DNA of 64,000 nt from an uncultured Candidatus Saccharibacteria bacterium (GCA_964467765.1 CAYXSS010000002.1:1310-65309), one strand, 5' to 3'. Shown: positions 1,730 to 50,820, counted from the first letter of the stretch. The notes: generated by a model from the letters alone, not told the origin. Program-made: numbers and translations.

Positions 1730-2497
1730 ATGGGCAAGCGTCTTATAAAACAGATTGCTTATGGGATTTTTTATTTATTTTTTTTCGCCGGCATAATTTA
1801 CGGCTCTTACGTTTTATTTATTCGTCCGGCGCCGTCTTGCTTCGATAAAATTCGAAACCAAAATGAAGAAGGGGTTGATTGCGGCGGGCCGTGCGCGGCG
1901 GCGTGTATTCCGGCAGAGCTGCGTCCGATTGTGGCTATCGATCGCATTTTGAAATTCAGCAGTACACCGTCGTCAATAAGTATTTTGGCGAAAATCAGCA
2001 ATGCCAACCTTGATTACGCCGCAAAAAATTTTTCTTACAAATTTAATTTTTATAAAGCGAACGGTGATTTTGTCGGATCTCTTGGCGGCAATTCTTTTAT
2101 TTATGCCGGGGAAGTGAAATATCTTTTACTCCCGAATGCGTCTTTGCCGCCAGTTCCTTTTTCTAAAATTGATTTAAAAATAGAAAATGTCGAATGGTTA
2201 CCCGGTAACAGGTTTTCTGGCCCGCCAAATGTTGCCGTCTCCGGTGTTGCAACCGCGGCAGAAGCCAGTAATTTATCCGTCGATGGCCAAATAACCAACC
2301 GCGACAGCGTTTCATTCCCCGCGGTAACTGCGGTAGCAATTTTTCGCGGCCAATTTGGTCAGATTGCCGGGGCGTCGCAAACGGAGATTTCTAACCTTTT
2401 GCCAAACGAAACCAGGAAATTTTCAATTATTCATCCCCTCATACCAAGCGTCGACTTAAACGGTACCAGCGTTTTTGTTTACTCTCGAAGACCATAA
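1730..2497 (+). CDS. membrane-anchored hypothetical protein
   Basis: A single N-terminal TM helix is present. The stop overlaps the start of the SEDS gene at 2497, so the two are probably co-transcribed. Confidence 0.55.
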   Translation: MGKRLIKQIAYGIFYLFFFAGIIYGSYVLFIRPAPSCFDKIRNQNEEGVDCGGPCAAACIPAELRPIVAIDRILKFSSTPSSISILAKISNANLDYAAKNFSYKFNFYKANGDFVGSLGGNSFIYAGEVKYLLLPNASLPPVPFSKIDLKIENVEWLPGNRFSGPPNVAVSGVATAAEASNLSVDGQITNRDSVSFPAVTAVAIFRGQFGQIAGASQTEISNLLPNETRKFSIIHPLIPSVDLNGTSVFVYSRRP

Positions 2498-3570
2498 TGT
2501 CGCTTTTTTTGCCGGTCGGAATACTGCTTTTAGCCAGCCTTGCAGCAATTTCCAGCGTTTCTGCCTCGCTTTTTTACCTGCAGCTTGTATGGATTGCCGT
2601 AGGGCTAATGGCCGTTGTTTTGTTTTACTTTTTTGATTGGCGGAATCTTTTGAATTATCGCTGGCTTATCGGCGGACTTTATGCGCTGACGACCGTGCTC
2701 CTTCTCCTCCTTGATGTTTTCGGCTCTAAAATTCGTGGCACAAGAAGCTGGATCTCTTTGGGCCTGTTCAATTTTCAGCCAGTAGAGATAGCAAAGATTT
2801 CTTTGGTGCTTTTGTATGCTTTGTATTTCAGCAAAAAACATATAAATATTTCTCACTGGAGTACGGTTTTCCAATCGTTTTTATTTTTTGCAATTCCTGC
2901 AGCTCTCGTTGCCTTACAACCAGATTTCGGTTCGGCGCTGATTCTTTTCGGCATTTGGTTTATGTTTCTGATCTTATCCGGACTTTCCGGAAGGCGTCTG
3001 GTTATTTTTCTGCTCACGCTGCTTATAATTGCTCCGATTTTTTGGTTTAATATTCTGCGCGATTATCAGCGTGAGCGCATCGCGGGCGTTTTTTTTCCGG
3101 AGCGCAATGTTTTAGGAATTAATTACAGCGCCGCGCAATCAAAAATAGCTATTGGCTCCGCCGGTTTTTGGGGCAAGGGTTATAAACAAGGGACGCAGAC
3201 GCAGCTAGGCTTTCTTACGGAACCGGCATCCGATTTTGCTTTTGCTGTTGTCGTCGAAGAATGGGGAATTTTCGGGGGGCTGGTGGTAATTTCGGCGCTG
3301 ACCTTTTTAATTTTCAGGATTCTGCGAAGCGGCCTTGGGGCTCGCAGGAATTTCGAAAAATTCGTTTGCCTTGGGGTGGCGGTGATTTTCGGATTGCAAT
3401 TTTTGCTTAATGCCGGCTCGGCGCTCGGCCTTACCCCAATCGTCGGCGTAACATTTCCTTTTATCAGTTACGGAGGGTCGAGCATCGTGGCAAGCTTGTT
3501 TCTTCTGGGCCTTGTAGCCGCAATAAACAGAGAAAAAGACTGGGGAATAAAACAAGGCCAAATGCTCTAA
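2497..3570 (+). CDS. ftsW: SEDS-family peptidoglycan glycosyltransferase FtsW/RodA
   Basis: The protein is polytopic. It carries SEDS motifs (PDFGSALIL, IGSAGFWGKGY..GTQTQLGFLTE, SDFAFAVVVEEWG). Confidence 0.85.
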   Translation: MSLFLPVGILLLASLAAISSVSASLFYLQLVWIAVGLMAVVLFYFFDWRNLLNYRWLIGGLYALTTVLLLLLDVFGSKIRGTRSWISLGLFNFQPVEIAKISLVLLYALYFSKKHINISHWSTVFQSFLFFAIPAALVALQPDFGSALILFGIWFMFLILSGLSGRRLVIFLLTLLIIAPIFWFNILRDYQRERIAGVFFPERNVLGINYSAAQSKIAIGSAGFWGKGYKQGTQTQLGFLTEPASDFAFAVVVEEWGIFGGLVVISALTFLIFRILRSGLGARRNFEKFVCLGVAVIFGLQFLLNAGSALGLTPIVGVTFPFISYGGSSIVASLFLLGLVAAINREKDWGIKQGQML

Positions 3571-3585
3571 AATCAATTTAAGGAA

Positions 3586-4566
3586 ATGAGGCACGTCATC
3601 AAAAGAAGTTTCTTTTCCAAAAGGTTTTTTGCGCTGGCCTTATTTTTTTTCTCAGGCGTTGCGTTTTTATTGTCTCTTGGTCCGAAAGGAGCTGATTCTA
3701 GAATTATTTTCGAGATAAAACGCGGCGAAGGATTTTCCGAGATAGCCGCGCGCTTGGAAAAAGAAGGCATAATCAGATCGAGGCTGTCGTTTGAAATTCT
3801 CGGGATTTTAATTTGGAAATATAAGTATATAAACCCCGGCGTTTATACGCTCAATCCGGGCGAAACGAGCGTCGTCATACTTCGGGAAATTGCTCCCGAG
3901 GAAAAAAACGAAGCAGAAGTTCGCATACCGGAAGGCGCCACCGTTTATAAAATCGATTCTATTTTAAGCGACGCAAAAGTTATTATTCCCGGAAGTTTGA
4001 TAACCTATGCCTCATCGACTGATATAGAAGGTCGCCTTTTCCCGGACACCTACAGGTTCTTGTTTAATTCTTTTATGGAAGACGTGGTTAAAAAAATACT
4101 GGACAATTTCGACTTGAAAACCAAAAATGTGCTCAAGGGAAAAAATGAGGCAGAGATAAAAAAGATTGTGGTTTTAGCTTCGATTCTAGAAAAAGAGGTA
4201 CCGGAAGCGGAGGATATGAAAATAGTTGCCGGTATTTTACTGAAAAGAATCGGCGCCGGAGTGCCGCTTCGCGTTGACGCTACAATCTGCTATATTAAAG
4301 AGGTTTTAAGCGGGTCTGCGGTGTCTTCTTGTTATCCACTGCAGCCACTTGACTTCAAAAGAGAATCGGATTATAATACTTACTTACACGCTGGTTTGCC
4401 GCCTCGGGCTATTGGTAATCCAGGTATTTCGGCCATATCAGCCGCGGTTGCTCCGAAAAATTCCCCCTACTGGTACTACTTAAGCGACCCGAGAACCAAG
4501 AAGACGATCTTTGCTAAAACATTTGAAGAGCATAACGAAAACAGGGCAAGATATCTGGGGTTGTAG
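3586..4566 (+). CDS. mltG: endolytic murein transglycosylase MltG (YceG-like)
   Basis: An N-terminal TM helix is followed by a YceG-like domain. Being adjacent to a SEDS gene is typical. Confidence 0.75.
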   Translation: MRHVIKRSFFSKRFFALALFFFSGVAFLLSLGPKGADSRIIFEIKRGEGFSEIAARLEKEGIIRSRLSFEILGILIWKYKYINPGVYTLNPGETSVVILREIAPEEKNEAEVRIPEGATVYKIDSILSDAKVIIPGSLITYASSTDIEGRLFPDTYRFLFNSFMEDVVKKILDNFDLKTKNVLKGKNEAEIKKIVVLASILEKEVPEAEDMKIVAGILLKRIGAGVPLRVDATICYIKEVLSGSAVSSCYPLQPLDFKRESDYNTYLHAGLPPRAIGNPGISAISAAVAPKNSPYWYYLSDPRTKKTIFAKTFEEHNENRARYLGL

Positions 4567-4581
4567 TATTATAATAATGGC

Positions 4582-4610
4582 TTGACAGACCGCGTTTCAT
4601 CGCCTAGTAT
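4582..4610 (+). promoter_or_regulatory. sigma70-like promoter upstream of rpoBC (TTGACA-17-TAGTAT)
   Basis: Consensus -35 and a near-consensus -10. It is followed by a leader of about 285 nt before the ATG at 4895. Confidence 0.45.
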
Positions 4611-4894
4611 ATTACATACGAATTTCTGAAGCACGGTTATTGTAGCAATTGTTTGCTGAAAAATTCGTGCTTGCGGTGAAACGCGATGTGGCAAGCGAGT
4701 TGATTTAAGAGACTCGTGCTGACATAAAAAGACAAAAATAAATAAAATAAAAACGCTCCTTCCAGGGAAGGGGGGAGGTTTTATTGCGTTAGCCGTTTTT
4801 TCAAATAAAAATCTAGTTGATGGTTGATGCTTTTGGGTTGACGACAAAAAGCCAGATTAAAAAAACGATTTGAATTTATTTCGAAGCAAATAAA

Positions 4895-7800
4895 ATGCCA
4901 AAAATTCCGGTAAAAAGTTTCGCCAAATCGCTGCCGCTTGTTGAACCTTTTGACCTGAACGAGGCACAACTCCGTTCTTACGGTTGGTTTTTAGAAAAAG
5001 GATTGAAAGAAATTTTCGACGAAATTTCTCCGATCACCAGCCATACCGGCAAGGAATTCGAATTATATTTCGGTAAATATCATTTTGATGAACCGAAATA
5101 TGACGAAAGAACCGCGCGCTACAAGGATGCGACCTACGAAGCATCTTTAAGGGCGGAGCTGAGGCTCGTCGATAAAAAAACAGGGAAGTCGGAAAAGCAA
5201 GAAGTTTATCTTGGTGATTTTCCGATAATGACCAACCGGGGAACTTTTATTATCAACGGCGTCGAGCGTGTGGTTATTGCGCAGCTTGTGCGATCCGCCG
5301 GCGTTTACTTCACCTCTTTCCTTTGGCGTGGCCGCCAGCTTTTCGGTGCAAAAATAATTCCGAACCGCGGCGCATGGCTCGAGTTCGAAACCGATCCGGA
5401 TGGCGCCATTGAAGTTAAAATTGACCGCCACAGAAAGGTTCCCGTAACGGACCTTTTGCGTACGTTCGGATACGATGATGAAAAAATCCGTGCGGCATTT
5501 TCCGATGTCGAAAAAGGAATGTTCGACCACATTGAAGCAACTCTTAAAAAAGACACCGCCAAAAATGCCGATGAATCTTATGTCGAGATTTATCGGCGCC
5601 TCCGTCCGGGAGATCCGGCGGCCGCAGCAACGGCCAAGGGCTTGATTGATGCCATGTTTCAGCGTTCCGATCGCTACGACTTGTCCCGCGTCGGTCGTTT
5701 TAAATTTAACCAACGTTTGTACGGCGGACAGAAAAAAGAAGATAGGGTTTTAAATGGCGAAGATTTGGTTGCGGTTATAAAAGAAATAATCAATCTGAAC
5801 AACAAACAGGATTCTCAGCCGGACGACATAGATCATTTGGGCAACAGGCGCCTTAAGGCTGTCGGCGAGCTTTTACAGGGAAGACTTCGCATTGGCTTGG
5901 CCAGATTGAAACGGATTGTACAAGACAGAATGTCTACGGAAGCAAGAGAGCGCATCTCGCCTTCGCAACTCATTAACTTCCGTCCGATTGCCGCCGTCGT
6001 TAAAGAATTTTTTTCTTCTTCACAGCTTTCGCAATTTATGGATCAAGTAAATCCGTTGGCCGAACTTGAGCACAAACGAAGGATTTCTGCCTTGGGTCCC
6101 GGTGGTTTGACGCGGGAGCGGGCCAGCTTCGAGGTTCGCGACGTTCACCGCTCGCATTACGGCCGCGTTTGTCCGATTCAAACTCCCGAGGGCGGGAGTA
6201 TCGGTCTGATTAATTATTTGGCTAGTTTCGCCAAGATAAACGATTTCGGATTCGTCGAGACGCCATATGCGCGCGTTGAAAAAGGCAGGGTGACTGGAGA
6301 AATTGTCTGGATGGACGCACTGGAAGAAGAAAAATATAAAATAACGCATGCCGGAGTAAGAAGAGACGCGGAAGGCAATCTGTTGGGTGAAGTTGTTGAG
6401 GCCAGAGTAAAAGGTACGCCGGGAACTTGCGCCATACAGGAAATTGATTTTATCGACGTTGCCCCTCATCAATTTGTTAGCGCCGCTACTTCGCTTATAG
6501 CATTTCTTCAGCACGACGACGCCAACCGTGCGCTTATGGGTTCCAACATGCAAAGACAAGCCGTTGGCTCGATCAGGCCGGCCGCCCCTTATGTTTCAAC
6601 GGGCGAAGAAGAGAGGGTTGCGAGAGACTCCGGCTATGTTTTAAAAGCGGAAGGAAGCGGTAAAGTTGTCGAAGTTGATGCGGGGAAAATAACCGTTAAA
6701 TATCAGAAAGGCGGGACCAAAACTTATCACCTGGAAAAATTTAAAAGATCGAACCAGTTTACATGTATATCGCAGCAGCCGCTGGTTAATCTTGGAGATG
6801 TTGTAAAAAAAGACGACCTTTTGGCCGATGGGCCATCTACGGATGACGGTGTTCTTGCTTTAGGCCAAAATCTTCTTGTGGCCTTTATGTCCTGGGAAGG
6901 AGCAAACTTCGAGGACGCCGTAATACTTTCCGAGCGAGCCGTGCACAAAGATCTTTTTACTTCGATACACATCGAAGATTTTTATTGCGACGTACGCGAC
7001 ACAAAACTTGGTCCGGAGTTAACAACGCCGGACATTCCCAACGTTTCCGAAGAAAAATTGAGAAATCTGGACGAAGAAGGAATTGTACGTATTGGCGCCG
7101 AAGTAAGGGCAGGCGATATTTTGGTCGGAAAAATTTCTCCCAAAGGCGAAGCCGAGCTTACTCCGGAAGAAAGGCTTCTGCGGGCAATTTTCGGCGAGAA
7201 GGCCCGTGATGTGAAAGACACTTCTCTTACGCTGCCGCATGGTAAGCGCGGCCGCGTGGTCAACATCAAGATTTTCGACAGGGAAAAAGGCGACAAGCTT
7301 GAACCGGGAATAATCAAGCGCATTCAGGTTGAGATCGCAGAGTTAAGAAAAGTGCAGGCGGGAGACAAGCTTGCCGGCCGCCACGGCAACAAAGGGGTAA
7401 TTTCCCAAGTAAGAAGAGTTGAAGATATGCCATATCTCGAGGACGGGACGCCGGTGGACATAATTTTGAATCCTTTAGGCGTGGCTTCGCGTATGAATCT
7501 TGGCCAGGTGCTCGAAACACACCTTGGTTGGGCTGCGCAAAAACTGGGATATAGAGCCGTAACCCCGGGGCTCGATTCCGCAACAGAAGACGAAATAAGG
7601 GCGGAACTCAAGGCAGCTGGTCTTCCGGAAAACGGAAAAGTGACCCTTTTCGACGGCCGGACCGGAAAAAAAGTTGATCAGAAAGTCAATGTCGGCGTAA
7701 TTTACATGCTGAAACTCAATCATCTGGTTGAAGACAAGGCACATATGCGATCTACCGGTCCTTATTCACTCATTACCCAACAACCATTAGGCGGTAAGGC

Positions 7801-10800
7801 GCAGTTCGGCGGTCAGAGATTCGGAGAAATGGAAGTTTGGGCGCTCGAAGGATATGGGGCAAGGCATACATTGCAGGAAATGTTGACGATCAAGTCCGAC
7901 GATGTTTTGGGCCGCGCCGCTGCTTACGAATCGATAATCAGAGGGGAAGAAATTAAAGAGCCGAATTTGCCGGCATCGTTCAATGTGTTGGTCAACGAGC
8001 TCAAGTCACTTGGTTTTAACGTCAAACCGATTTATGCCGACGAAACAAGAAGGAAGGAAGATTTTTCCGCGCTGCAAATTACAGTCGCCTCTCCGGAAGA
8101 CATTTTGAAATGGTCGCATGGCGAAGTTATCAAACCAGAGACAATCAATTATCGAACCCAAAGACCGGAAAAGGACGGTCTTTTCTCGGAGCGTATTTTC
8201 GGTCCGACAAAAGATTATGAATGTTATTGCGGTAAATACAGACGTGTGCGTTATAAGGGCGTTGTTTGCGACAAGTGCGGCGTGGAGGTTACCAAGGCGT
8301 CCGTTCGGCGCGAAAGACTGGGGCATTTGGAGCTTGCCGCACCCGTTTCACATATTTGGTTTTTAAAGAGTGCGCCTTCCCGCTTGAGTTTATCTCTCGA
8401 CGTGTCTGCTCCAAAACTGGAACGCGTAATTTACTATTCCGCCTACATTGTTACCGAGGTTGACGAAGAAGAAAGAGAGAAAGCGCTAAAGGCTTTGGGC
8501 GGAGAACTAAAAAGCAGAATAAAAGAAAGCGGCAAAGGCAAAGGCGTTGAGAAAGAGCTTAAGGAAGCAGCCAAAGTTACCGAGGACTATCTTCAGGATT
8601 TGCGTCTTGGGCAAGTTCTTACAGAAACCGAATACTTTAATTTATCCAGACGTTTCGGCAGTGTTTTTCGCGCCGGAAGCGGAGCGGAAGCCGTCAGGAA
8701 AATTCTCGAGGGGATGGATCTGCGCAAGGAAATTCAAAAAATACAATCAGACCTCGACAAATCAAAAGACCCGCTTGCCCAAAGCAAACTCCTGCGGCGC
8801 CTCAAAATGTTTAAGTCTATGATCAAAAACCAAACGAGGCCGGAGTGGATGATCTTTAATGTTTTACCCGTTCTTCCTCCTGATCTTCGCCCGATGGTGG
8901 CGCTTGACGGCGGCAGGTATGCCACGTCCGACCTCAATGATCTATACCGGCGCGTTATTAACAGAAACAACCGTTTGAAAAAACTTTTGGACATAAAAGC
9001 GCCAGACGTCATTGTTCGCAACGAAAAAAGAATGTTGCAAGAGGCAGTAGACGCCCTAATCGACAATTCGGCAAGGTTTGGCTCGCAACAGCTTTCTTCG
9101 CAGCGCAGGCCGCTCCGATCTCTCGCTCACATGCTTAGAGGGAAACAGGGCCGCTTCAGACAAAATCTTCTCGGCAAGAGAGTGGATTACTCCGGCCGCT
9201 CCGTGATCGTCGTAGGTCCCAAATTAGGGATCGACGAATGCGGGCTGCCGAAGATTATGGCGCTCGAGCTTTTTCGGCCGTATGTCTTGAGCGAGATTAT
9301 CAAAAGAGGATTGGCTTACAACATTCGCGGCGCGGCGCGGTTTATCGAAGAGGGTAGCGACGAAGTCTGGGCAATTTTGGAAGACGTCATTCGCGACAAA
9401 ATGGTGCTCTTGAACCGCGCTCCGACACTGCACCGCTTAAGCGTGCAGGCTTTCAAGCCCCTGCTTACCGAAGGATTGGCGATTCAAATACCGCCGCTGG
9501 TTTGTGTCGCTTTCAATGCCGACTTTGACGGCGACCAAATGGCTGTGCACCTGCCTCTTTCGAATTACGCCCAGAAAGAGGCAAGAGAAATTATGTCTGC
9601 CGGCGGAAATATTTTGAAGCCGGCAACTGGCGAGCTTATAACTACGCCGACGCAAGACGTCGTTTTGGGAATTTATTATTTGACGCAGACGGACGAATCG
9701 AATGTGGAAAGAAACGAAAAAGGTTTGCCGAAAAAAGCGATCGGAGGAATCGAAGAAGCCCTGCTTGCGCATGAGTTCGGATTTATTGGTCTGCGCGAGC
9801 CTGTTTATTGGCAGAGTATGGAGACGACTCTCGGCCGCATGATTTTTAACGAAAATCTCCACGGCCTTCTTCCTTATCAAAACGAAGCTATAAACAAGAA
9901 AAAACTGGTAAAGATCGTAGAAAATATTTTTGACAAATATGGAAAAGAGGAAACAAGAAATATTTTGGATGCCGTAAAACTCTTGGGTTTCGAGATGGCA
10001 ACGCGTTCAGGAATTACATGGGCGATGGCCGACCTTATGGTTCCGAAAGGCAAACGCGCGCTGGTTGAGTCTTCAGAAAAACAAACCGCGGAAATTCAAG
10101 ATCAGTTTAACGAAGGGCTTTTGACTGCTGCCGAGCGGCGCGCCAGAGTGATAAGTGTTTGGGAAAAGGCAAAAGCCGATATTTCCAAACTGGTAGCCGA
10201 GGCTTTAGAAAAAAACAATCCCATTTACCAAATTGTTGATTCTGGTTCGCGCGGTTCTTGGTCCCAGCCGATCCAGATGATGGGTATGAGAGGTTTGGTG
10301 CAAAACCCCAAAGGAGAAATTATCGAATTGCCGATTAAATCATCTCTGAAAGAAGGTTTCAGTGTTTTGGAATATTTCATTTCCACGCACGGTGCGAGAA
10401 AAGGAACGACTGACACCGCTCTTAAAACCGCCCAAGCTGGATATCTGACGCGACGCTTAGTTGACGTATCACAGGATTTAATCATAAGAAGCGAAGACTG
10501 CCGCACAAAAGAAGGAGTAGAAATTTTCCGCAAGGACGGCAAGGAGTTCAACCAATCTTTCTCGAGCCGCCTCTTTTCGCGCACGTCGCTTGAGGATGTG
10601 AGGATACAGAGGAAAATCGTCGTGCGTGCCGGAGAAATTATAGACAAAATCGCAGCGGAGGCGATAGATCGTTCCAATATTGAATCAGCTAAGGTCAGGT
10701 CGCCAATCACCTGTAAGACGGCACACGGCATTTGTTCCAAATGCTACGGTTTCGACCTCGGCAGCAACAGTCCGGTGAAATTTGGCGTGGCCGTGGGCGT

Positions 10801-11656
10801 GCTTGCCGCTCAATCTATCGGTGAACCGGGAACGCAGCTTACAATGCGCACATTCCATGCCGGAGGCGTTGCCGGAGCTGATATTACGCATGGCTTGCCG
10901 CGCGTGGAAGAGCTTTTTGAAGTAAGACCGCCGCGAGGCAGGGCGATTCTTGCTCCTATGGACGGAATAGTAGAAAAAGTGGAAGACAAGGGCATGGCAA
11001 AACTTGTAAGAATATCACAGCCAGGATCAAAAAAGGCGCAAGAATTTTTGATTTCGCGCACAACACTGCTTTTCGTGGAAGTCGGAGCCAAAGTGCAGAA
11101 AGGCGATCAGATTTCTGAAGGACATGTCGATCTCAAGGAACTTTTAGCCATCAAAGGCAAAGAAGAGGTACAGCGCTACATCATCAACGAGGTGCAGAAA
11201 ATTTATTTATCGGAAGGCGCAACGATCAACAATAAACACATCGAGATAATCGTCAGACAGATGTTCTCTCGCGTGCGCGTAAGAGATGCCGGAGACTCCA
11301 CGGATTTTGTTGCCGGAGAAACCGTGGAAAAAGACAGTGTCCTCGAAGCCAACAGGGAACTTAAAAAACAGGGCCTGAAACCGGTCAAAGCAGACGAACT
11401 GCTTTTGGGAATAACGCGAGTCGCGCTTTCTTCCGACAGTTTCCTTTCCGCTGCTTCTTTCCAAGACACGGCGCGTGTTTTGGTTAAATCTGCAGTAGAA
11501 GGCAGAATAGACAGTCTGCGCGGCCTTAAGGAAAACGTGATCATCGGTCGCCTCATCCCGACAAAGGAATTGACAAAAGGTATACCGGAAGACGACGTTG
11601 ACGAAGCCGTAAAAGAGGAGCCGGTTGCCGCTGCTGGCGAACCAGAAGAAAATTAA
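4895..11656 (+). CDS. rpoBC: fused DNA-directed RNA polymerase beta-beta' subunit (RpoB-RpoC in one ORF)
   Basis: RpoB motifs ([37 protein letters not shown]) run straight into RpoC motifs ([39 protein letters not shown]). There is no stop at the junction near 8040. Confidence 0.95.
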
Positions 11657-11695: not shown

Positions 11696-12115
11696 ATGGA
11701 AGAAACGGAGAAAAAAAACTACGAAATTTCCTGCCTTTTGGCCAAAGAAGAAGATGCCGATGTGGTTTTGCGGCTTTTGCGCCAGCACGGAATTGAGGCA
11801 ATATCGGACCCCAGGGTTAAAAAAATAAAATTGTCTTACCCGATAAAAAAGACAACACAGGCGGATTTTTGGTTTATAAGATGTTCAGCCTCGCCCGAAG
11901 CAGTTGTTGCTTTGGAAAAAGACTTAAAAACCGCCGCAGGCATTTTGCGCTTCATTATTGTCAAGCTTCCTAAAGAAGCGCTTGGTGTTCAAGGAGAGAC
12001 CGGTGGTCGTCCTCCGAGAAAATTTGTTCCAAGGAAAACAACTTTGCCGCAGAAGCGTACAGAGGTTTTGAGCAACGAGGCGCTGGAGAAAAAAATAGAG
12101 GAGATTTTGCAATAG
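11696..12115 (+). CDS. rpsF: 30S ribosomal protein S6
   Basis: S6-like profile (YEI..., LSYPIKK, FIIVKL). Its position directly upstream of ssb matches the conserved rpsF-ssb arrangement. Confidence 0.65.
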   Translation: MEETEKKNYEISCLLAKEEDADVVLRLLRQHGIEAISDPRVKKIKLSYPIKKTTQADFWFIRCSASPEAVVALEKDLKTAAGILRFIIVKLPKEALGVQGETGGRPPRKFVPRKTTLPQKRTEVLSNEALEKKIEEILQ

Positions 12116-12239
12116 GAGCATTGAATCCGCCGGAAGCCGCAATCTCTTTACAAACAGCTATATTTTTGTAGAATAAATAAGTCGCTATAACAATGATAAA
12201 GTTTGCAGATCAATACAGTCGCGATCTGCTTTTAACGGT

Positions 12240-12686
12240 ATGAATCTAAACAAAGTTTTTCTCATCGGCCGTCTGACTGCCGACCCGCAGCTCCGAAACG
12301 CTCCTTCGGGACAGGCGGTTACGAGCTTCGGCGTTGCTACCAATCGCGTTTGGACGGACAAATCCGGCGCGCGGCAGGAAGAAACGGAATTCCACAACAT
12401 CGTTGTCTGGGGCAGGCAAGCGGAAATCGTTACCCAGTTTTTGACGAAAGGCAGCATGGTACTCATTGAGGGGCGGCTGCGAACCCGTTCCTGGCAGGAT
12501 AAAAGCGGCCAGGAAAGAAGAACAACCGAGATCATAGCCGAGCGCGTCCAGTTTGGTCCGCGGCCGCAGGGCGGCGCAAAAGGAGGTCGGCAGACTGCAG
12601 CCGAAAATCAGGAGATAAAGACGGAAGAAGTGCCGACGGTTGACTTGGAAGGCGAGGAGGCGAAGGCGGGAGATCTGCCGTTTTAA
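12240..12686 (+). CDS. ssb: single-stranded DNA-binding protein
   Basis: An OB-fold SSB N-terminus (VFLIGRLTADPQLR) and an acidic C-terminal tail ending in DLPF. Confidence 0.9.
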   Translation: MNLNKVFLIGRLTADPQLRNAPSGQAVTSFGVATNRVWTDKSGARQEETEFHNIVVWGRQAEIVTQFLTKGSMVLIEGRLRTRSWQDKSGQERRTTEIIAERVQFGPRPQGGAKGGRQTAAENQEIKTEEVPTVDLEGEEAKAGDLPF

Positions 12687-12750
12687 TTCAAAATTTAAGA
12701 GTCAAAATGTAAAATTTTCATTTTGATATTTGTGGTTTAAATTTTTAAAC

Positions 12751-13176
12751 ATGGCCAAAAAAATCAAAACAATTTTAAAACTTCAACTTCCTGCCGGACA
12801 GGCCAATCCCGCGCCGCCCGTTGGCACCGCTTTGGGGCCGCACGGCGTAAACATTCAGGAATTCTGTAAACAATTCAACGACAAGACAAAGGATATGGCA
12901 GGCGATATCGTGCCGGCGGAAATCACGATTTTCGAAGACCGCAGTTTTAAGTTTGTCTTGAAGACCCCGCCCGCATCGGCGCTTTTGAAAAAAGCCGCAG
13001 GAATCGAAAAGGGCTCTGGCGACCCCCTAAAAACCAAAGTCGGTAAAGTTACCCGCGCCGATGTGCGCAAAATCGCCGAAAGAAAAATGCCGGATCTAAA
13101 TACCGACGATCTCGCCGCTGCCGAGCGCACCGTCATGGGCACGGCGAGAAATATGGGAATTGAGGTTATAGATTGA
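12751..13176 (+). CDS. rplK: 50S ribosomal protein L11
   Basis: [35 protein letters not shown] is a classic L11 N-terminus. The start was moved to the MAKK codon. Confidence 0.9.
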
Positions 13177-13414
13177 TAATCCTTGTGCATATTTCTGTGA
13201 AAAGGTCGGGAAACCGGAGTTTCCAGTGTCGGAAAACAGCGATCCGCCGACAGGCGGAGAGCACTAGAAACCCCTGCCTGCCGGCAGGGGTTTCTAGGGA
13301 GGGGCGACGAATAGTCGCTCCGACGTAATATGGGAATCAAGAAGTGGCGATGAGCAGTCGCTCCGACAGGCGGAACTGAAATTATAAATGAAACCCCTCT
13401 CTTTGAGAGGGGTT

Positions 13415-14047
13415 TCATTTATTTCTTAATATCGGTTCAATCGATTTTTTCACGTCCTGAAAAATCTTTTCTTCGTCCGGGGAAGCGTCAATAATGACCG
13501 TGGAATTTTTGAACCGCGGATGTTCGGCGACTTGCAGGTAGTTTTGTCTGATTTTTTCGAGCCAAGCTTCTTTCTCAAAAAATTCTTTTCTATCCCTGCC
13601 TTTTTCGATGCGCCGCAGCGCTTCTTTTGAGGGAATGTCGAAAATTATATTCAGATCAGGCCAGATAAGATGCGCTCCGATGATTTGCTCATGCATTTCC
13701 ATAATTTCTTCCGCTGAAATACCATCAAGCATGCCGTAAGCGACAGTGGAAAACGTGAAGCGTCCCATAAGGCAAATATTTCCGGCATCAAGCCGGGGTT
13801 TAATGGTGCTTACGATATCCTGTGCCCGATCGATGACGTAAAGTCGCTGGAATTCTTTTGCGTCCGCGATTTTCGGCATCTCGCCGCGCAGCATTTTCCT
13901 GATTGTTTGGCCTATTGGGGTATCGCTTGGCTCGCGTGAAAATTTTACATCAAAGCCAAGTTTTTGAAGCCAAGAAATTGTTCGCTCGGCCTGTGAGTCT
14001 TTGCCGCAGCCGTCGATCCCCTCGAGGGCGATGAGTTTGCCTTTCAT
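13415..14047 (-). CDS. tmk: thymidylate kinase
   Basis: A P-loop (LEGIDGCGKDSQ) and an overall dTMP-kinase profile. Confidence 0.85.
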   Translation of the reverse strand: MKGKLIALEGIDGCGKDSQAERTISWLQKLGFDVKFSREPSDTPIGQTIRKMLRGEMPKIADAKEFQRLYVIDRAQDIVSTIKPRLDAGNICLMGRFTFSTVAYGMLDGISAEEIMEMHEQIIGAHLIWPDLNIIFDIPSKEALRRIEKGRDRKEFFEKEAWLEKIRQNYLQVAEHPRFKNSTVIIDASPDEEKIFQDVKKSIEPILRNK

Positions 14048-15153: not shown

Positions 15154-16287
15154 ATGGCAGTGAAACGGAAGAATGACACGAAGATAATCATTACAACCGG
15201 AATTCCCGGATGCGGCGAAAAAGATTTTTTTTTAAAGCTCGTCCATTATTGTGAGATGCGTGGCAAAAGCGTGAAAATCATCAATACAGGAGATCTGATG
15301 TTTGATAATTTCGCCGACCTTGGGCACAAGATGAGACACAAAACCATTCTTAGAGTTGAGCAGTGGCGTTTGCAGACCGACAGATCGGCCGTGCTTCGCG
15401 CCGCTCTGCAAGAGATTGTCGATAATAAGAACAAATACGACTTAGTCCTTGTCTGCATCCACGCCTGGTTCCTGTGGGATTATGTATATTTGGAGGCCTG
15501 CGATAGGTTTTTGAAAAAATTTTTAACCATGCCAGAGCTTGCGGCACTTGTGACATTTATCGACGACTACAGGCCGATCATAATGCGCCTTCGGGAGCGT
15601 GAGCAATGGCAGGATCAAAAATTGAATCCTGAAAAAATTCTTTCTTGGCAGAACGTTGAGGTTGGGACAACTCAGATTATCGCTGGACTTTTTGACGTTC
15701 AGTTCCAGGTTTTCGCCACCTCGCAGTCGCCGTCGGAATTTTATAAGATGGTTTTTCATCCGGAGATCGAGTCAGTTTACACAGGAATGCCGATTTCGCA
15801 TTTGCGTAAAGCGGACGATAGAGAACCGATTGACAGATTTATCAAGAAACTTTCGCGGTATTTCCGGATTGTAAATCCTTTAAGCGTTGAGGTTGTTGGA
15901 GCAGTTCATTTCGACAAGAAAGAGCCGGAAAAATATGGCCAGGCGGTGCATAGACACATTGTTCATCGCGATCTCTATTGGTTTTTACACCTTTGCGATT
16001 TTATGGTGGCTTATTGGCCCCAGGTCATAGTTCCGGAAGAGGTGCAAAAGGCTGCCAAACACTACCCGAATATTCTCAAAGAGTGGCCCAGGGCCATTTC
16101 ATCTCCGGGGCTTTCGAGCGAAATGCAGCAGGCGTGTGGCGAAGGAAAAGACGTTTTTACTGTTTTTCTAGGTTCGGAAGCGAGTCCATTTATTGTTCGC
16201 AATTCGACGCGCATCTTTTTGTCCGAAAAAAAATTTTTCTCATACCTGGACAAAAAATACCCCGGGCGGAAAGATCTCGTTTGGTAA
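15154..16287 (+). CDS. two-domain hypothetical protein, with an N-terminal atypical P-loop kinase-like region and a possible C-terminal NDT/SLOG-like region
   Basis: GIPGCGEKD fits GxxGxGK. The C-terminal half has VYTGMPIS and SPGLSSEMQQACGEGKDVFTVF motifs that recall the NDT fold. The match is weak. Confidence 0.4.
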   Translation: MAVKRKNDTKIIITTGIPGCGEKDFFLKLVHYCEMRGKSVKIINTGDLMFDNFADLGHKMRHKTILRVEQWRLQTDRSAVLRAALQEIVDNKNKYDLVLVCIHAWFLWDYVYLEACDRFLKKFLTMPELAALVTFIDDYRPIIMRLREREQWQDQKLNPEKILSWQNVEVGTTQIIAGLFDVQFQVFATSQSPSEFYKMVFHPEIESVYTGMPISHLRKADDREPIDRFIKKLSRYFRIVNPLSVEVVGAVHFDKKEPEKYGQAVHRHIVHRDLYWFLHLCDFMVAYWPQVIVPEEVQKAAKHYPNILKEWPRAISSPGLSSEMQQACGEGKDVFTVFLGSEASPFIVRNSTRIFLSEKKFFSYLDKKYPGRKDLVW

Positions 16288-18954: not shown

Positions 18955-19060
18955 GCGGTTGCCAAAATTGTTGATTTTTTGCGGCTAATGCGGTTGTTGA
19001 CTCTAGCCAGCCGTGTTTTATTATTCTTATAGAAACTTGTTATGCGTTTTGGAGGATTGT

Positions 19061-21118
19061 ATGAGCGAGACGAAAGGGTTCGATCTCGAAAAGGTTATCA
19101 GCGAAGACGCGGAAAGGAAGATAAGAAAACAGAAAACACACAAGGAAATAACGTTTAAAGACTACCTTGCGCTTCTGAAAAACGATCCAAAAATCGCCCA
19201 AAATTCTCCGGCCAGGCTTCTCGAGAAAATCTTGAATTTCGGCAAAGAGCCGGTTCCTGAATCGGAGCAATGGTTTGCGGACGACAACGGTTCGCCGATA
19301 GACATTCGCTACGCCGCTTTTTCCAAGAAGCTTTTCGGGTTGGATAAGCCGATTTATCAGGCAGTGAATTTCTTAAAGGCTGGCGCCAATCGTTTAGAAA
19401 CGGGGAACCAAATTCTTCTTTTGGTCGGTCCTACTGCTGGCGGCAAATCGACGTTCGCAAGAATGTTGAAACAGCTTCTTGAGGATTATTCCCTGCGCCA
19501 GGTTTTCGCCATTAAAGGTTGTCCGATGCACGAAGAGCCTTTGCATATTCTGCCGCGTTACCTGAGAAGTGACTTTGAGCGCGACCTGAAAGTTAGGATA
19601 GACGGCGATCTTTGCCCGCACTGTCGCCACATACTGGATGAAAAATATACCATCAAAGAAGGCGAAGAAAAAGGCAAGGTGCGCTGGTGGGACGTGCCCG
19701 TAGAGACCTTCACTTTTTCCATACAAGGCGCTCGCGGCATTGGATCTTTTGAGCCGTCTGATGAGAAATCCCAGGACGTTACCGAGCTTGTCGGCCGCGA
19801 AAACATTTCGATAAGTTCCACAAAAGGCCCGGATCATCCTCTGGCCTGGTCTCTTTCCGGAGAATTGGAAAAAGCCAACAGAGGAATATGTGAAGGACGC
19901 GAACTTATAAAAGCGGACGAAAAGCTCCTATGGGTATTTATCAGCGTTGCCCAAGAAAAAGAGGTCAAATTGCAAGGGTCCAGCTTCCCGCATCTTTCTG
20001 TCGATACGATTGTTATCGGCCACACGAACCTTACCGAATACAATAAATTTTCTTCGCGCCAGGAAAACGAAGCTTTGCATGATCGCATGTACGTTGTGCA
20101 GTTCCCGTATCCGCTGCGCATGAGCGACGAAGTAAAGATCTACAAAAAGCTTATTGAAGAAGAAAGCGATTTTGTGCATCTCTCGAAGTGCCACATCGCT
20201 CCCGGTTCGCTTGAGCTTGCAGCCCTATTTGCCGTGCTCACGCGGCTTTTGCCTCGGTCTAAGGGCGAAGTGGATATTTTAACTAAAGCAAAGATCTACA
20301 ACGGAGACAGGTTGCTCTTGGAATTCCGCGACAAAGACAAGAAACCGATCGACATCAGGACTCTTGTCGAGGAGGGCCAGGAATCGCCGGATGTTAGCAA
20401 GCGCGAAGGTATGTTTGGCGCAAGCTCGCGCGACATTTTGGCGGCCATCAACATGGAACTTGTGAAAAAAGGCGACGGCTGTCTCACCCCGCTTTCCGTG
20501 ACTCGCGCGTTGCGCGACGTCTTCGAGCATCGCATGGGTTATACGCCGGAAGAGCAGGCGCGCTTCAGAGAAATAATCCAGGAAAGTGTTATGGCGGAGT
20601 ACAAAGAATTTGTTATCGAGTCCGTAAACAAAGCTTTTCTTAGGGCTTATGACGATCTGGCTCGCGAGCTATTTGCGAGATACATTGAGGCAGTCGAGCT
20701 CCACCGCAATCAGAGAAGAAAACTGGTGCGCGGAGGTTTCAAGGTCGAACGCGACGATATTACCCAGAAGCCGAAAGAGCCGGATTTGAAGCTCATGCGC
20801 TCCATCGAAGAACATATCCCGGTCGGTGAATCGGAGGCGGATACCTTCCGCGGCGAAATCTTGGAATACAAATCCCAGATGAAGAGTTTCAATTACGACA
20901 CTTATCAGCCGCTGGCCCGCGCAGTTGAGAAAAAGCTTTTGGCGGACAACAAAACCAGTCTTGGCCTGGTGCTTTCTCAAGACAAGCCAAAGGGCGAAGA
21001 GGAAAAGAAGCGAGCCGACGATCTCTTCGGCGCGCTAACCGACCCCAACGGCGCGCGTTTCTGCCCGGTTTGCGCCAAAGAAGTTGTTGAAAAAGCGAGA
21101 GAATTCCTTAACGCATAA
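19061..21118 (+). CDS. prkA: PrkA-family serine protein kinase (AAA+ plus kinase-like)
   Basis: A Walker A motif (LLLVGPTAGGKSTFARML) and the length of a PrkA/YeaG family member. The start was moved to MSETKG because a GGAGG SD precedes it. Confidence 0.8.
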   Translation: MSETKGFDLEKVISEDAERKIRKQKTHKEITFKDYLALLKNDPKIAQNSPARLLEKILNFGKEPVPESEQWFADDNGSPIDIRYAAFSKKLFGLDKPIYQAVNFLKAGANRLETGNQILLLVGPTAGGKSTFARMLKQLLEDYSLRQVFAIKGCPMHEEPLHILPRYLRSDFERDLKVRIDGDLCPHCRHILDEKYTIKEGEEKGKVRWWDVPVETFTFSIQGARGIGSFEPSDEKSQDVTELVGRENISISSTKGPDHPLAWSLSGELEKANRGICEGRELIKADEKLLWVFISVAQEKEVKLQGSSFPHLSVDTIVIGHTNLTEYNKFSSRQENEALHDRMYVVQFPYPLRMSDEVKIYKKLIEEESDFVHLSKCHIAPGSLELAALFAVLTRLLPRSKGEVDILTKAKIYNGDRLLLEFRDKDKKPIDIRTLVEEGQESPDVSKREGMFGASSRDILAAINMELVKKGDGCLTPLSVTRALRDVFEHRMGYTPEEQARFREIIQESVMAEYKEFVIESVNKAFLRAYDDLARELFARYIEAVELHRNQRRKLVRGGFKVERDDITQKPKEPDLKLMRSIEEHIPVGESEADTFRGEILEYKSQMKSFNYDTYQPLARAVEKKLLADNKTSLGLVLSQDKPKGEEEKKRADDLFGALTDPNGARFCPVCAKEVVEKAREFLNA

Positions 21119-21210
21119 AATTCTTATTGGCAGCCGACGTCATTTTGACGCCGGTTTTTTTTATTGCTAAAATAAAACCAGCGCTTTGGATCTTTAATAA
21201 GGAGATGCAA

Positions 21211-22566
21211 ATGCCGATTGTACAGACTGAACCGACCTCCTATAAGGGAACTGGCGACGCCAAACGGCATCGCGACAAACAAAGAGAAGCTCTGAAGAAA
21301 AAACTTCCGGAAATCATTTCCGAGGAAGCGATTATTACCAAAAAGAAATCGGGAATCGTGAAGGTTCCCATAAAAATGATCGATATTCCTCACTTCCGTC
21401 CGCGGCGCGATTGTCGGGGCGCTGGCGGCGGTCAAGGCCCTTACCAACCAGGCGATATTTTGAAAAGAAAGCCTGGTCAAGGCAACAAGCCTGGCGAAGC
21501 CGGACAAGAGCCCGGCGTAGACTATATTGAAACGGAAATTTCCATAGAGGAATTGATAGAAATGATGCTCGAAGATATCGGTTTGCCGCGGCTCACGGAG
21601 AAAACGCAGAAATCCATACTGGTGGAACTTGGATATCGCGTAGCCGGTCGCCAAAAATCCGGACCATGGCCGCTTCTAGACAAAAAAGCAACCGTGAAAG
21701 AGGGAATAAAAAGATTTTGGTTTTGCCTGCGGGCGGTTCAGACGGAGGCCGACTCCGACGAGCTTGCGGCCTTCGCCGCGCTCAAAGAAACGAACGGCGA
21801 CGTTCAAGCCGCCATAGAATTTTTACGAAGCGGCAAAACTCTTAAACCGTTCGAAAAAATAGAACCATTCCCGATTTTTGCGGCCGACGACATGCGCTTC
21901 CATAAAATTAAAGAAAATATGGAGGAAAGGTCGCGGGCGGTGGTAATAGCAATGATGGATGTTTCCGCATCGATGACTGATGTAAAAAAATATTATGCCC
22001 GCTCGACTATTTTTTGGCTGGTCAGCTTCCTAAGAACCATTTACAAGCAGGTTGAAATCAGGTTTATCGTGCATCATGCTACGGCCAGGATTGTTGACGA
22101 AGAAGAATTTTTCAAGGTCGGCGAGAGCGGCGGGACGCTGTGCCACAGTGCCTACGAACTTGCCGAGAGCTTGATTAAATCTGAATATCCGACGGAAGGC
22201 TGGAACGTTTATGTTTGGCATTTTTCCGACGGCGAAGATTTTAATGCCGATGAGACTTGTAAAGCGGCTGCGAAGTTGATTGATTTGGGAATTAATATGC
22301 TTGGTTATGGCGAGATAAATCCGGAAGAGGAGTGGGGCGTGATGACAGCGGCACTGCCGAACTTTAAGGGGCTTGCCGAATCAGTTCTTTGGAAATACTT
22401 GCGCAGCCATTTTTCTCTGCGCGAATCCAAAGATAGCAACGAAGTCAAACTTATGACCAAAGACAACCTGCCGTTTCTTGCGGTATTTATTTCCGCGCGC
22501 AAGCACATATTTTTGGCGCTTAAGGAATTTCTTCGCAAGGATCGGTGGAAGGAGGTGACACGATGA
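21211..22566 (+). CDS. yeaH: YeaH/YhbH-like DUF444 (vWA-like) protein
   Basis: It lies between prkA and spoVR. A vWA-like MIDAS region is present (VVIAMMDVSASM). The start is the ATG at 21211, 6 nt after AAGGAG. Confidence 0.7.
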   Translation: MPIVQTEPTSYKGTGDAKRHRDKQREALKKKLPEIISEEAIITKKKSGIVKVPIKMIDIPHFRPRRDCRGAGGGQGPYQPGDILKRKPGQGNKPGEAGQEPGVDYIETEISIEELIEMMLEDIGLPRLTEKTQKSILVELGYRVAGRQKSGPWPLLDKKATVKEGIKRFWFCLRAVQTEADSDELAAFAALKETNGDVQAAIEFLRSGKTLKPFEKIEPFPIFAADDMRFHKIKENMEERSRAVVIAMMDVSASMTDVKKYYARSTIFWLVSFLRTIYKQVEIRFIVHHATARIVDEEEFFKVGESGGTLCHSAYELAESLIKSEYPTEGWNVYVWHFSDGEDFNADETCKAAAKLIDLGINMLGYGEINPEEEWGVMTAALPNFKGLAESVLWKYLRSHFSLRESKDSNEVKLMTKDNLPFLAVFISARKHIFLALKEFLRKDRWKEVTR

Positions 22567-24077
22567 AAAAAACAGACATCGCCCGTTTGTCCAAAATAGA
22601 AGACCGCATACGCCGTATTGCCGAGGATAACGGCCTTCTGACCACAGACATCCTTTTTGAGGTCGTTCCGGCAAGGAAAATGCTTGAATCCATGGCCTAC
22701 ATGTTTCCGACGAATTTTTCCCATTGGTCTTTCGGCAGGGATTACGAAAAATATAGGACGATTTACGAATATACCGGATCGGGAATTCCCTACGAACAAG
22801 TTTGGAATTTCGATAAGCCGCGCGCTTTGATTGTCGAAACAAACCCCGTTGCTCTCAACATCATGGTCATCGCGCATGTTTTCGGGCACGTAGATTTTTT
22901 CTTGGCAAACGGTTTTTTACGCCGTGGCAGGGAAGTTGCCGATATTGCCGAAGAGGCGAGAAATGCGGCAAATCGCTTTGCCGCCTACGAAGAACGATTC
23001 GGCAAACAGGATGTGGAGCGGGTTATGGATGCCGCCATGTCGATCATGTGGCACGAAAACCCCGATCCGTTTTTCGATGAACCTGAAGAAGAAGAATTAC
23101 GCGAGCGCCTAATAGAGATCGAGAGGGCGAAGCTGGAACGGACCCGCAGTCTCAAGTCCGAATTCAGCAAGCCCGAAAGTAGAGAAGAAACAGCGGCCAT
23201 CGAAGAAAAGCTTGCGGAGCTTATGAAAAAGACTCCACCGGAGCCGACACACGACCTTTTGCTTTATATTTCGCGCCGATCGCCTAAACCATTGAAGCCT
23301 TGGATGGCGGATGTTATAAGCGTGATTCGCCGCCAAGCGAGAGCTTTGTCTCCCAACAGGCGCACGAAGATGCTTAATGAGGGCTGGGCCACATATTGGC
23401 ACGTAAAAATCATGCGGCAGCTTTTTCAGGAAGGACTTTTGACGGCGGAAGAGCACGGCGTTTTTAACGAGTTTCACTCCGCAGTTACGCGGCAAAATAG
23501 AATGTCTCTTAACTGGTACGGAGTGGGATTGGCTCTTTTGAACGAGATAGAGGACAGATGGAACAAGGGGCGCTTTGGCGGGGATTATGAAAAATGCAAC
23601 GATGCCTACAAACTGGCCGATTGGGATACGGGCGCAATGTTGGGCAAGAAAAAACTTTTCGAAATAAGGTCCGCGTATAGCGACAGAATGGCCGTAGAGG
23701 AATTTTTCACCGACGAATTTATCCGCGACCAAGAACTTTACCTTTATACCGAAAGCGTGAATCCTCAAGACGGTTCCGTGGAATACGTCGTCGACGAAGA
23801 CGATCCGGAAATAATCAGGCGCAGACTGAAATCGCTTTTCACCCTTTACGGAACGCCGTTGATTACGGTTGAGGACGGAGATTGTGACGGAGCAAAAGAG
23901 TTGTACCTTAAACACCGTTTTTCCGGCTATGAGCTGGATCCGCACTACAGAAACGGCACATTGCGTAAAATTTATGATCTATGGGGCAAACCCGTGCATC
24001 TTGAAGCAGCACACGATGGAAAACTGAAACTATTCACTTTTGATGGCAAGGGCTTCAGCGAATCCATCATGCTCTAA
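22563..24077 (+). CDS. spoVR: SpoVR/YcgB family protein
   Basis: SpoVR motifs (AYMFPTNFSHWSFGRDYE, MVIAHVFGHVDFF). The start overlaps the yeaH stop as ATGA. Confidence 0.85.
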   Translation: MKKTDIARLSKIEDRIRRIAEDNGLLTTDILFEVVPARKMLESMAYMFPTNFSHWSFGRDYEKYRTIYEYTGSGIPYEQVWNFDKPRALIVETNPVALNIMVIAHVFGHVDFFLANGFLRRGREVADIAEEARNAANRFAAYEERFGKQDVERVMDAAMSIMWHENPDPFFDEPEEEELRERLIEIERAKLERTRSLKSEFSKPESREETAAIEEKLAELMKKTPPEPTHDLLLYISRRSPKPLKPWMADVISVIRRQARALSPNRRTKMLNEGWATYWHVKIMRQLFQEGLLTAEEHGVFNEFHSAVTRQNRMSLNWYGVGLALLNEIEDRWNKGRFGGDYEKCNDAYKLADWDTGAMLGKKKLFEIRSAYSDRMAVEEFFTDEFIRDQELYLYTESVNPQDGSVEYVVDEDDPEIIRRRLKSLFTLYGTPLITVEDGDCDGAKELYLKHRFSGYELDPHYRNGTLRKIYDLWGKPVHLEAAHDGKLKLFTFDGKGFSESIML

Positions 24078-50772: not shown

Positions 50773-50820
50773 GTTACGATGTAGGTAGAATTTTACAATC
50801 TTGTTTTGCTGGAGGAGAAA

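Follow-up and report, generated by a model that had tools for sequence, protein, structure and literature searches.

The window analyzed here, a 64,000-nucleotide (nt) stretch of DNA deposited under the name of an uncultured Candidatus Saccharibacteria bacterium (GCA_964467765.1, CAYXSS010000002.1:1310-65309), encodes the beta (RpoB) and beta' (RpoC) subunits of RNA polymerase in a single open reading frame (ORF) that starts with ATG, ends with TAA and stays open throughout its 2253 codons (Table 1). The initial annotation of this DNA described rpoB and rpoC as fused in one frame of this length, and both the ORF and the order of the Pfam domains in its product bear this out. The six domains RNA_pol_Rpb2_1, 2, 3, 45, 6 and 7 follow one another in this order at amino acids (aa) 21-1044, all above the gathering score, and the full RpoC set, RNA_pol_Rpb1_1, 2, 3, 4 and 5, occupies aa 1055-2174. 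Scores for the NCBIfam equivalog models exceed the cutoffs in both halves: 1510.3 bits against 896 for RpoB model NF001616/PRK00405 (aa 7-1044, aligned to profile positions 4-1093 of 1096), 1486.5 bits against 801.15 for RpoB model TIGR02013, and 1531.8 bits against 963.5 for RpoC model TIGR02386 (aa 1060-2223, positions 2-1138 of 1147). The beta' half retains intact both the catalytic NADFDGD motif and the N-terminal four-cysteine zinc motif (C1110, C1112, C1125 and C1128). A domain-complete beta subunit is thus directly followed by a domain-complete beta' subunit in one stop-free frame; from base composition alone, at 48% G+C, the chance of a frame of 2253 codons staying open is about 1e-50. 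A protein 100% identical to the fused window product is present in the protein collection that was searched (P0121); a look-up of contigs encoding it gave no record.

Across the junction (8020-8070), there is neither a stop codon nor a change of frame, and the translation is exactly the one originally given. The absence of an intergenic spacer, which was also part of the initial annotation, holds as well: just about five non-conserved residues (A1048-R1052) lie between the conserved ends of the two subunits.

Table 1. Features of the fused rpoB-rpoC locus and of the gap upstream of it, in window coordinates
Feature	Coordinates	Strand	Description and basis
Fused rpoB-rpoC ORF	4895..11656	+	2253 codons + TAA, ~250 kDa product; ORF, Pfam, NCBIfam
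Beta (RpoB) module, aa 1-1047	4895..8035	+	Ends in conserved P1045-x-Y1047; Pfam, PRK00405, PDB alignment
Hinge (fusion point), aa 1048-1052	8036..8050	+	Five variable residues A-D-E-T-R; column entropies
Beta' (RpoC) module, aa 1053-2253	8051..11653	+	Begins at conserved R-K-E-D-F; Pfam, TIGR02386, PDB alignment
Beta' N-terminal zinc-binding motif, aa 1110-1129	8222..8281	+	Read from sequence
Catalytic NADFDGD of beta', aa 1541-1547	9515..9535	+	Intact; read from sequence
Untranslated gap after yceG, upstream of rpoBC	4567..4894	+	328 nt; promoter-like hexamers 4582-4610 and 4719-4748; G+C-rich hairpin followed by T-run 4756-4777

Such an ORF could in principle be produced by a single-base assembly or sequencing error that erased the stop of rpoB or caused a frameshift in the window contig alone. 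For a metagenome-assembled genome, this is a plausible prior, and error-prone long-read contigs do exist among the relatives, such as locus L081, in which the gene lies in many pieces. The distribution of the fusion makes this explanation exceedingly improbable. In a search with the full protein, all of the best 120 full-length matches, each representing one cluster at 90% identity, are fused: they are 2240-2322 aa long, 69-81% identical to the query and contain every Rpb2 and Rpb1 domain. These sequences come from four independent sources (NCBI, JGI/IMG, ENA and Logan assemblies), some of the fused relatives lie on contigs of 0.89-0.91 Mb, and one fused protein (P0122) was found again in five separately assembled contigs from Hainich groundwater. 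The names attached to the fused matches and to the closest loci are Ca. Liptonbacteria, Ca. Ryanbacteria and Ca. Paceibacterota; the organism of the window is a member of the Parcubacteria group of Patescibacteria.

The junction was also checked at the DNA level in six loci of this clade, drawn from differing samples, assemblers and archives. The genes are fused in L001, a GTDB species representative (Ca. Paceibacterota, DATJQA010000074), in two Hainich groundwater contigs (L082 and L083), and in L084 and L085; in L081, a long-read contig where the gene is broken by many frameshifts, the junction is still open. L001 is the sole locus of the fused clade that came from the scan of genome contigs, which is a sample rather than a census and yielded mostly unrelated bacteria in which the two genes lie in the same frame by coincidence. 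The script used for these calls distinguishes fused from separate genes: its verdict was fused for Helicobacter muridarum (L066) and separate for 78 other bacteria. An inspection of orthologous loci in related genomes, which had been proposed along with the initial annotation, thus shows the same fusion with a homologous junction.

The length of the junction is nearly constant across the fused clusters, which also argues against an error confined to one contig. Of the 120 homologues, 110 have a distance of exactly 96 aa from the FGEMEVWA motif of beta to the KPETINYRT motif of beta', and the other ten have 97-109 aa. Column statistics were calculated from 110 aligned sequences. The conserved end of beta, P-x-Y, has P12 in 96 and Y14 in 100 of them, and the conserved start of beta', R-K/R-D/E-x-F, has R in 101, D or E in 109 and F24 in all 110. 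The five hinge columns have entropies of 1.6-2.6 bits, compared with 0-0.7 bits at the flanking conserved positions.

Divergence between the loci points in the same direction. Between the window and L082, nonsynonymous (pN) and synonymous (pS) divergence over the whole gene are 0.13 and 0.78, respectively, and at the junction, 0.11 and 0.85; between the window and L001, the values are 0.20 and 0.82, with junction pN ranging from 0.11 to 0.39 across the comparisons with L082 and L001. Because synonymous sites are saturated (pS 0.78-0.85) while pN is low, the frame has been kept open by selection for a long time, and the residues of the junction are under purifying selection. Judging from the orthologous loci and this divergence, an assembly error can be considered excluded for practical purposes. 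The view that this is a natural beta-beta' fusion rather than a single-base artefact, on which the initial annotation was conditional, is borne out by L001, L082 and L083, L084, L085 and at least 120 clusters of fused proteins.

The same data bear on whether the fused gene could be a decaying, non-functional copy, with working separate rpoB and rpoC genes elsewhere in the genome. Nothing speaks positively for such a copy, the visible part of the genome being 64 kb, and we find the idea scarcely credible. The pN/pS ratio is about 0.17-0.24 over the whole fused gene, the RpoB and RpoC halves both score above their equivalog cutoffs, and the gene order FtsW-YceG-rpoBC-rpsF-ssb-rplK is conserved. 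Hundreds of columns are invariant across 48 homologues, and the functional motifs are invariant or nearly so: NADFDGD is kept in at least 90% of the sequences of alignment A1 and, in the zinc motif of the 48-sequence alignment, C261, C276 and C279 are invariant and the second cysteine, C263, is present in at least 90%. Overall, we consider it very likely that the locus carries a genuine, inherited and evolutionarily fixed rpoB-rpoC fusion of a Parcubacteria lineage that is translated as a single tethered beta-beta' chain of ~250 kDa.

Alignment to structures in the PDB indicates how little of the two subunits is missing at the fusion point. The match of the RpoB half to Escherichia coli beta extends as far as residue 1338 (of 1342), and the RpoC half resumes seven residues later, from residue 12 of E. 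coli beta'; therefore, beta is essentially complete, about 10 residues are missing from the N-terminus of beta', and the tether is near minimal. No chain among the best 60 PDB matches covers both subunits, and these matches provide no solved natural fusion for comparison.

The DNA around the fusion point offers little from which beta' could be initiated separately. The hinge contains no stop codon, no ATG, GTG or TTG and no ribosome-binding site that is conserved in relatives, and no promoter-like or terminator-like site is found on the plus strand at the junction. The window does have a purine-rich run, AGAAGGAAGGAAG, at 8048-8060, and the linker of some relatives includes an in-frame ATG, at which the NCBI pipeline calls a separate RpoC. 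These two features are what could be said for a fused gene that yields two proteins, either because beta' is also, or only, produced by internal initiation near the junction or because the chain is cleaved post-translationally, in both cases giving ordinary separate subunits. We consider this outcome improbable. After the purine run, the window has no ATG, GTG or TTG before the conserved start of beta' is reached; the run is missing in L001 and L081, the junction DNA of which contains no Shine-Dalgarno-like run; methionine occurs anywhere in the linker in only 8 of the 110 homologues; and the linker is too short, and its length too conserved, to resemble a processing loop. The purine run itself was evaluated as a ribosome-binding site and rejected, as it is not conserved, L001 and L081 encoding the same motif with GAC/CGC codons; the nearest start-type codon after it is TTG at 8105-8107 (Leu of ...DILKW), some 45 nt downstream. 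For the Helicobacter fusion, the work of Zakharova and colleagues in 1998/1999 reportedly found a single polypeptide, and we know of no precedent for cleavage of this natural fusion. In H. pylori, the two subunits form one chain, and the bacterium stays viable when the fusion is divided.

With neither a start codon nor a ribosome-binding site conserved at the junction, we infer a single tethered beta-beta' polypeptide; on the simplest reading, the gene would give one product of ~250 kDa. In such a chain, about five residues would link the C-terminus of beta to the N-terminus of beta', and the chain would combine with two alpha subunits, and with omega where there is one, to form an RNA polymerase that is ordinary in other respects. 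Fusion would enforce a 1:1 stoichiometry of the two subunits and remove one bimolecular step of core assembly. The C-terminus of beta and the N-terminus of beta' adjoin in the core enzyme, and a tethered polymerase is workable for this reason.

Several points weigh against a fixed, single-chain fusion of this kind. The case for a single polypeptide in the clade is made from sequence, and in a few clade members, including L084 and L085, the in-frame linker ATG is annotated by NCBI as the start of a separate RpoC, such that internal initiation may take place in some of them. The AlphaFold2 model of a 501-aa junction fragment, built with 48 homologues, is poor, with a mean predicted local distance difference test score (pLDDT) of 56.8 and a predicted TM-score of 0.52, and does not confirm the geometry of the tether. 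Near the junction, where pLDDT is 65-81, it places the last beta strand, a short loop and the first beta' strand in succession, in a model too poor to rely on. Finally, a selective advantage through stoichiometry or assembly is a rationale rather than a result.

In a neighbour-joining tree of the RpoC part (35 sequences, 1155 columns), all fused Parcubacteria form one clade, with L002, in which the genes are separate, as its sister. The unfused Patescibacteria L003, L005, L007, L011, L016 and L022 fall outside this clade, and Helicobacter is distant from it. L002 (CAZWDJ010000006.1) is labelled 'uncultured Candidatus Saccharibacteria bacterium', yet its RpoC groups with Parcubacteria; this label is probably wrong. 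At the L002 junction, rpoB ends with AAG GCA TAA, followed by TAC TAT CGT and then by the ATG of rpoC, all in one frame (TAA + 9 nt), which is probably what the ancestral arrangement looked like. In the ancestor of the fused clade, the stop codon of rpoB, the short spacer after it and the start codon of rpoC would all have disappeared; a small deletion that kept the frame, combined with loss of the stop, would produce the junction seen today.

A search with the RpoC half reveals a sharp boundary. All matches at 66% identity and above are fused proteins, fragments of fused proteins, or 'RpoC' entries of about 1200 aa that carry an RpoB tail or linker at the N-terminus, whereas at 65% identity and below, RpoC has the ordinary N-terminus MDFDAIKL... 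(Harrisonbacteria, Wolfebacteria and others). In L086, at 65% identity, rpoB and rpoC are truly separate at the DNA level. The ~1200-aa RpoC entries (66-73% identity) were considered as reversions to separate genes, and this was rejected because their N-termini carry an RpoB tail or linker. In L084 and L085, the 'RpoC' proteins are internal-ATG calls within stop-free frames of 2261 and 2313 codons, respectively; by their sequences, the short entries appear to be annotation splits and not reversions. Accordingly, the initial characterization of the fusion as a rare architecture stands across bacteria at large and fails within this Parcubacteria clade, where fusion is the rule.

The neighbouring unfused Parcubacteria, L002 and members of Harrisonbacteria, Wolfebacteria, Zambryskibacteria and Nomurabacteria, share the compact enzyme, with beta of about 1050 aa and beta' of about 1190 aa at 60-68% identity, and in L086, rpsF lies downstream of rpoC. 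They differ from the fused clade in that a stop codon closes rpoB and rpoC starts from a separate ATG, as seen at the DNA level in L002 and L086; for Harrisonbacteria, Wolfebacteria, Zambryskibacteria and Nomurabacteria, the MDFDAIKL-type N-termini suggest that the genes are separate.

The fusions of Helicobacter and Wolbachia, to which the initial annotation compared this locus, are indeed on record: Helicobacteraceae and Wolbachia are the bacteria to which PMC7483510 ascribes a fused rpoB-rpoC, with reference to Lane & Darst 2010 and Zakharova et al. 1999. NCBIfam equivalog models for fusions exist for exactly these two types. The window protein scores 2200 bits against a cutoff of 5372 for the Helicobacter-type model NF007172/PRK09603 and 2064.6 bits against 4632 for the Wolbachia-type model NF011417/PRK14844, in each case matching in 6 separate stretches. 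Because both scores fall short of the cutoffs, the protein belongs to neither of the two fusion families, although it has the same architecture. The Helicobacter/Wolinella fusion resembles that of the window in being a single ORF with beta before beta', no stop between them and lineage-wide inheritance. It differs in the distant position of H. muridarum in the RpoC tree, in a much larger protein (the PRK09603 profile has 2890 positions) and in a junction that is 15 residues longer in H. muridarum (41 residues from LALDV to ASP, compared with 26 in the window). The Wolbachia fusion, compared by profile only, likewise has the same architecture and occurs in a reduced-genome, host-dependent bacterium, but its profile, PRK14844, spans 2839 positions, compared with the 2253 residues of the window protein, and it comes from a different phylum. 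Given the remote position of Helicobacter in the tree and the failure of the Helicobacter and Wolbachia models to recognize the window protein, the origin is independent, and the Parcubacteria fusion is unrelated by descent to that of Helicobacter.

These are not the only natural fusions. In an exhaustive HMMER scan of 1.84 billion representatives at 50% identity, the whole fused clade of Parcubacteria collapses to one representative (P0176), and about 20 other representatives longer than 2000 aa match both halves of the junction query. Among the other fused clusters are those of Mycoplasma wenyonii (WP_014849752.1, 2648 aa) and of an Anaerolineaceae metagenome-assembled genome (MBQ6520178.1, 2744 aa); further ones, mostly unnamed and 2400-2800 aa long, are P0251, P0256, P0266 (6 members), P0279 (21 members), P0261 and P0395. 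In contrast to the clade of the window protein, these other clusters show 41-57% identity, junction spacings of 87-145 aa rather than 96 aa, and unrelated linkers; on these grounds, they are likely to have separate origins. Because several further lineages carry fused proteins with unrelated linkers, natural rpoBC fusions outnumber the two textbook cases. Fusion of beta and beta' has evidently arisen repeatedly, with Parcubacteria as one large instance.

The best functional analogue of the window protein is provided by the engineered rpoB-rpoC fusions of E. coli and Mycobacterium tuberculosis, such as plasmid pMP61. They too join the C-terminus of beta covalently to the N-terminus of beta', and the resulting RNA polymerase can be expressed and purified, the difference being that these are artificial constructs with designed linkers. 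Engineered beta-beta' fusions function in E. coli, a result cited in bioRxiv 10.1101/2021.11.05.467461, and a single polypeptide is for this reason mechanistically reasonable. M. tuberculosis RNA polymerase is routinely expressed and purified from a plasmid with fused rpoBC (bioRxiv 10.64898/2026.04.06.716786).

A more ambitious proposal sees in the fusion an ancient shared derived character that defines a large Parcubacteria clade, comprising at least the NCBI candidate phyla Liptoniibacteriota and Ryaniibacteriota. The unusually tight, partly conserved mini-linker would then be a functional adaptation in ultra-small cells poor in chaperones, perhaps as a replacement for an assembly aid such as omega, and not a neutral accident. 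We regard this proposal as speculative and rather unlikely; if true, the fusion would be a clean marker for taxonomy and, for the assembly of RNA polymerase, an experiment done by nature.

Fused sequences from Parcubacteria have been public since the Rifle genomes of 2016 (OGZ00444.1 and OGZ54329.1), and UniProt automatically labels sequences of the clade 'Multifunctional fusion protein'. No paper describing the fusion in the Candidate Phyla Radiation/Patescibacteria was found by full-text searches, either on this group or on rpoB-rpoC fusions in general, the coverage of which leaves out most subscription journals, so that absence from the literature is unproven. The architecture and its workability were already established and the sequences already public; the novelty lies solely in the lineage, in the tightness of its linker and in the problems with annotation. 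A large, independently evolved, uncultivated lineage joins the short list of natural beta-beta' fusions, hitherto Helicobacteraceae and Wolbachia, and the general understanding of transcription is unchanged by it. The fused or unfused state can serve as a simple marker, of the rare-genomic-change type, for placing Parcubacteria lineages. At 2253 residues, the protein is a very compact natural single-chain RNA polymerase core that could be of use in heterologous expression and structural work.

Annotation of the clade is inconsistent. Split calls occur in L084 (4501-8115, GCA_018971305.1) and L085 (3465-7094, GCA_030648185.1), and also in P0417-P0450; in all of these, an 'RpoC' of about 1204-1248 aa is reported from an internal start and the rpoB part is uncalled. 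Other entries give the complete protein of 2245 aa under the name 'subunit beta'' or 'hypothetical protein'. Where RpoB and RpoC are expected as two proteins, such inconsistency may distort phylogenies based on marker genes and estimates of completeness.

The genes flanking the fusion in the window (2497-4566 and 11696-14047) are arranged in the order FtsW/RodA, YceG, rpoBC, rpsF, ssb and rplK, followed by tmk on the opposite strand. Unlike in E. coli, rpoBC is not located beside rplK-rplA-rplJ-rplL; the order seen in the window is kept in L082, L083 and L084. The gap between yceG and rpoBC could be a leader or an attenuator; the counts of promoter-like sites and hairpins in it are not above those in shuffled controls.

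Farther downstream, three ORFs, at 50806-53760, 58749-61004 and 15154-16287 (984, 751 and 377 aa, respectively), have no Pfam match at E <= 1e-5. A three-gene module at 19013-24077 consists of prkA (with PrkA AAA and kinase domains), a DUF444 gene (yeaH-like) and SpoVR (ycgB-like); the Patescibacteria genome that carries it is presumably very small. The leucyl-tRNA synthetase encoded at 28754-31693 (979 aa) contains a match to the Pfam domain Ser_hydrolase at aa 250-341 (28.9 bits, compared with a cutoff of 22), which may represent an inserted domain.

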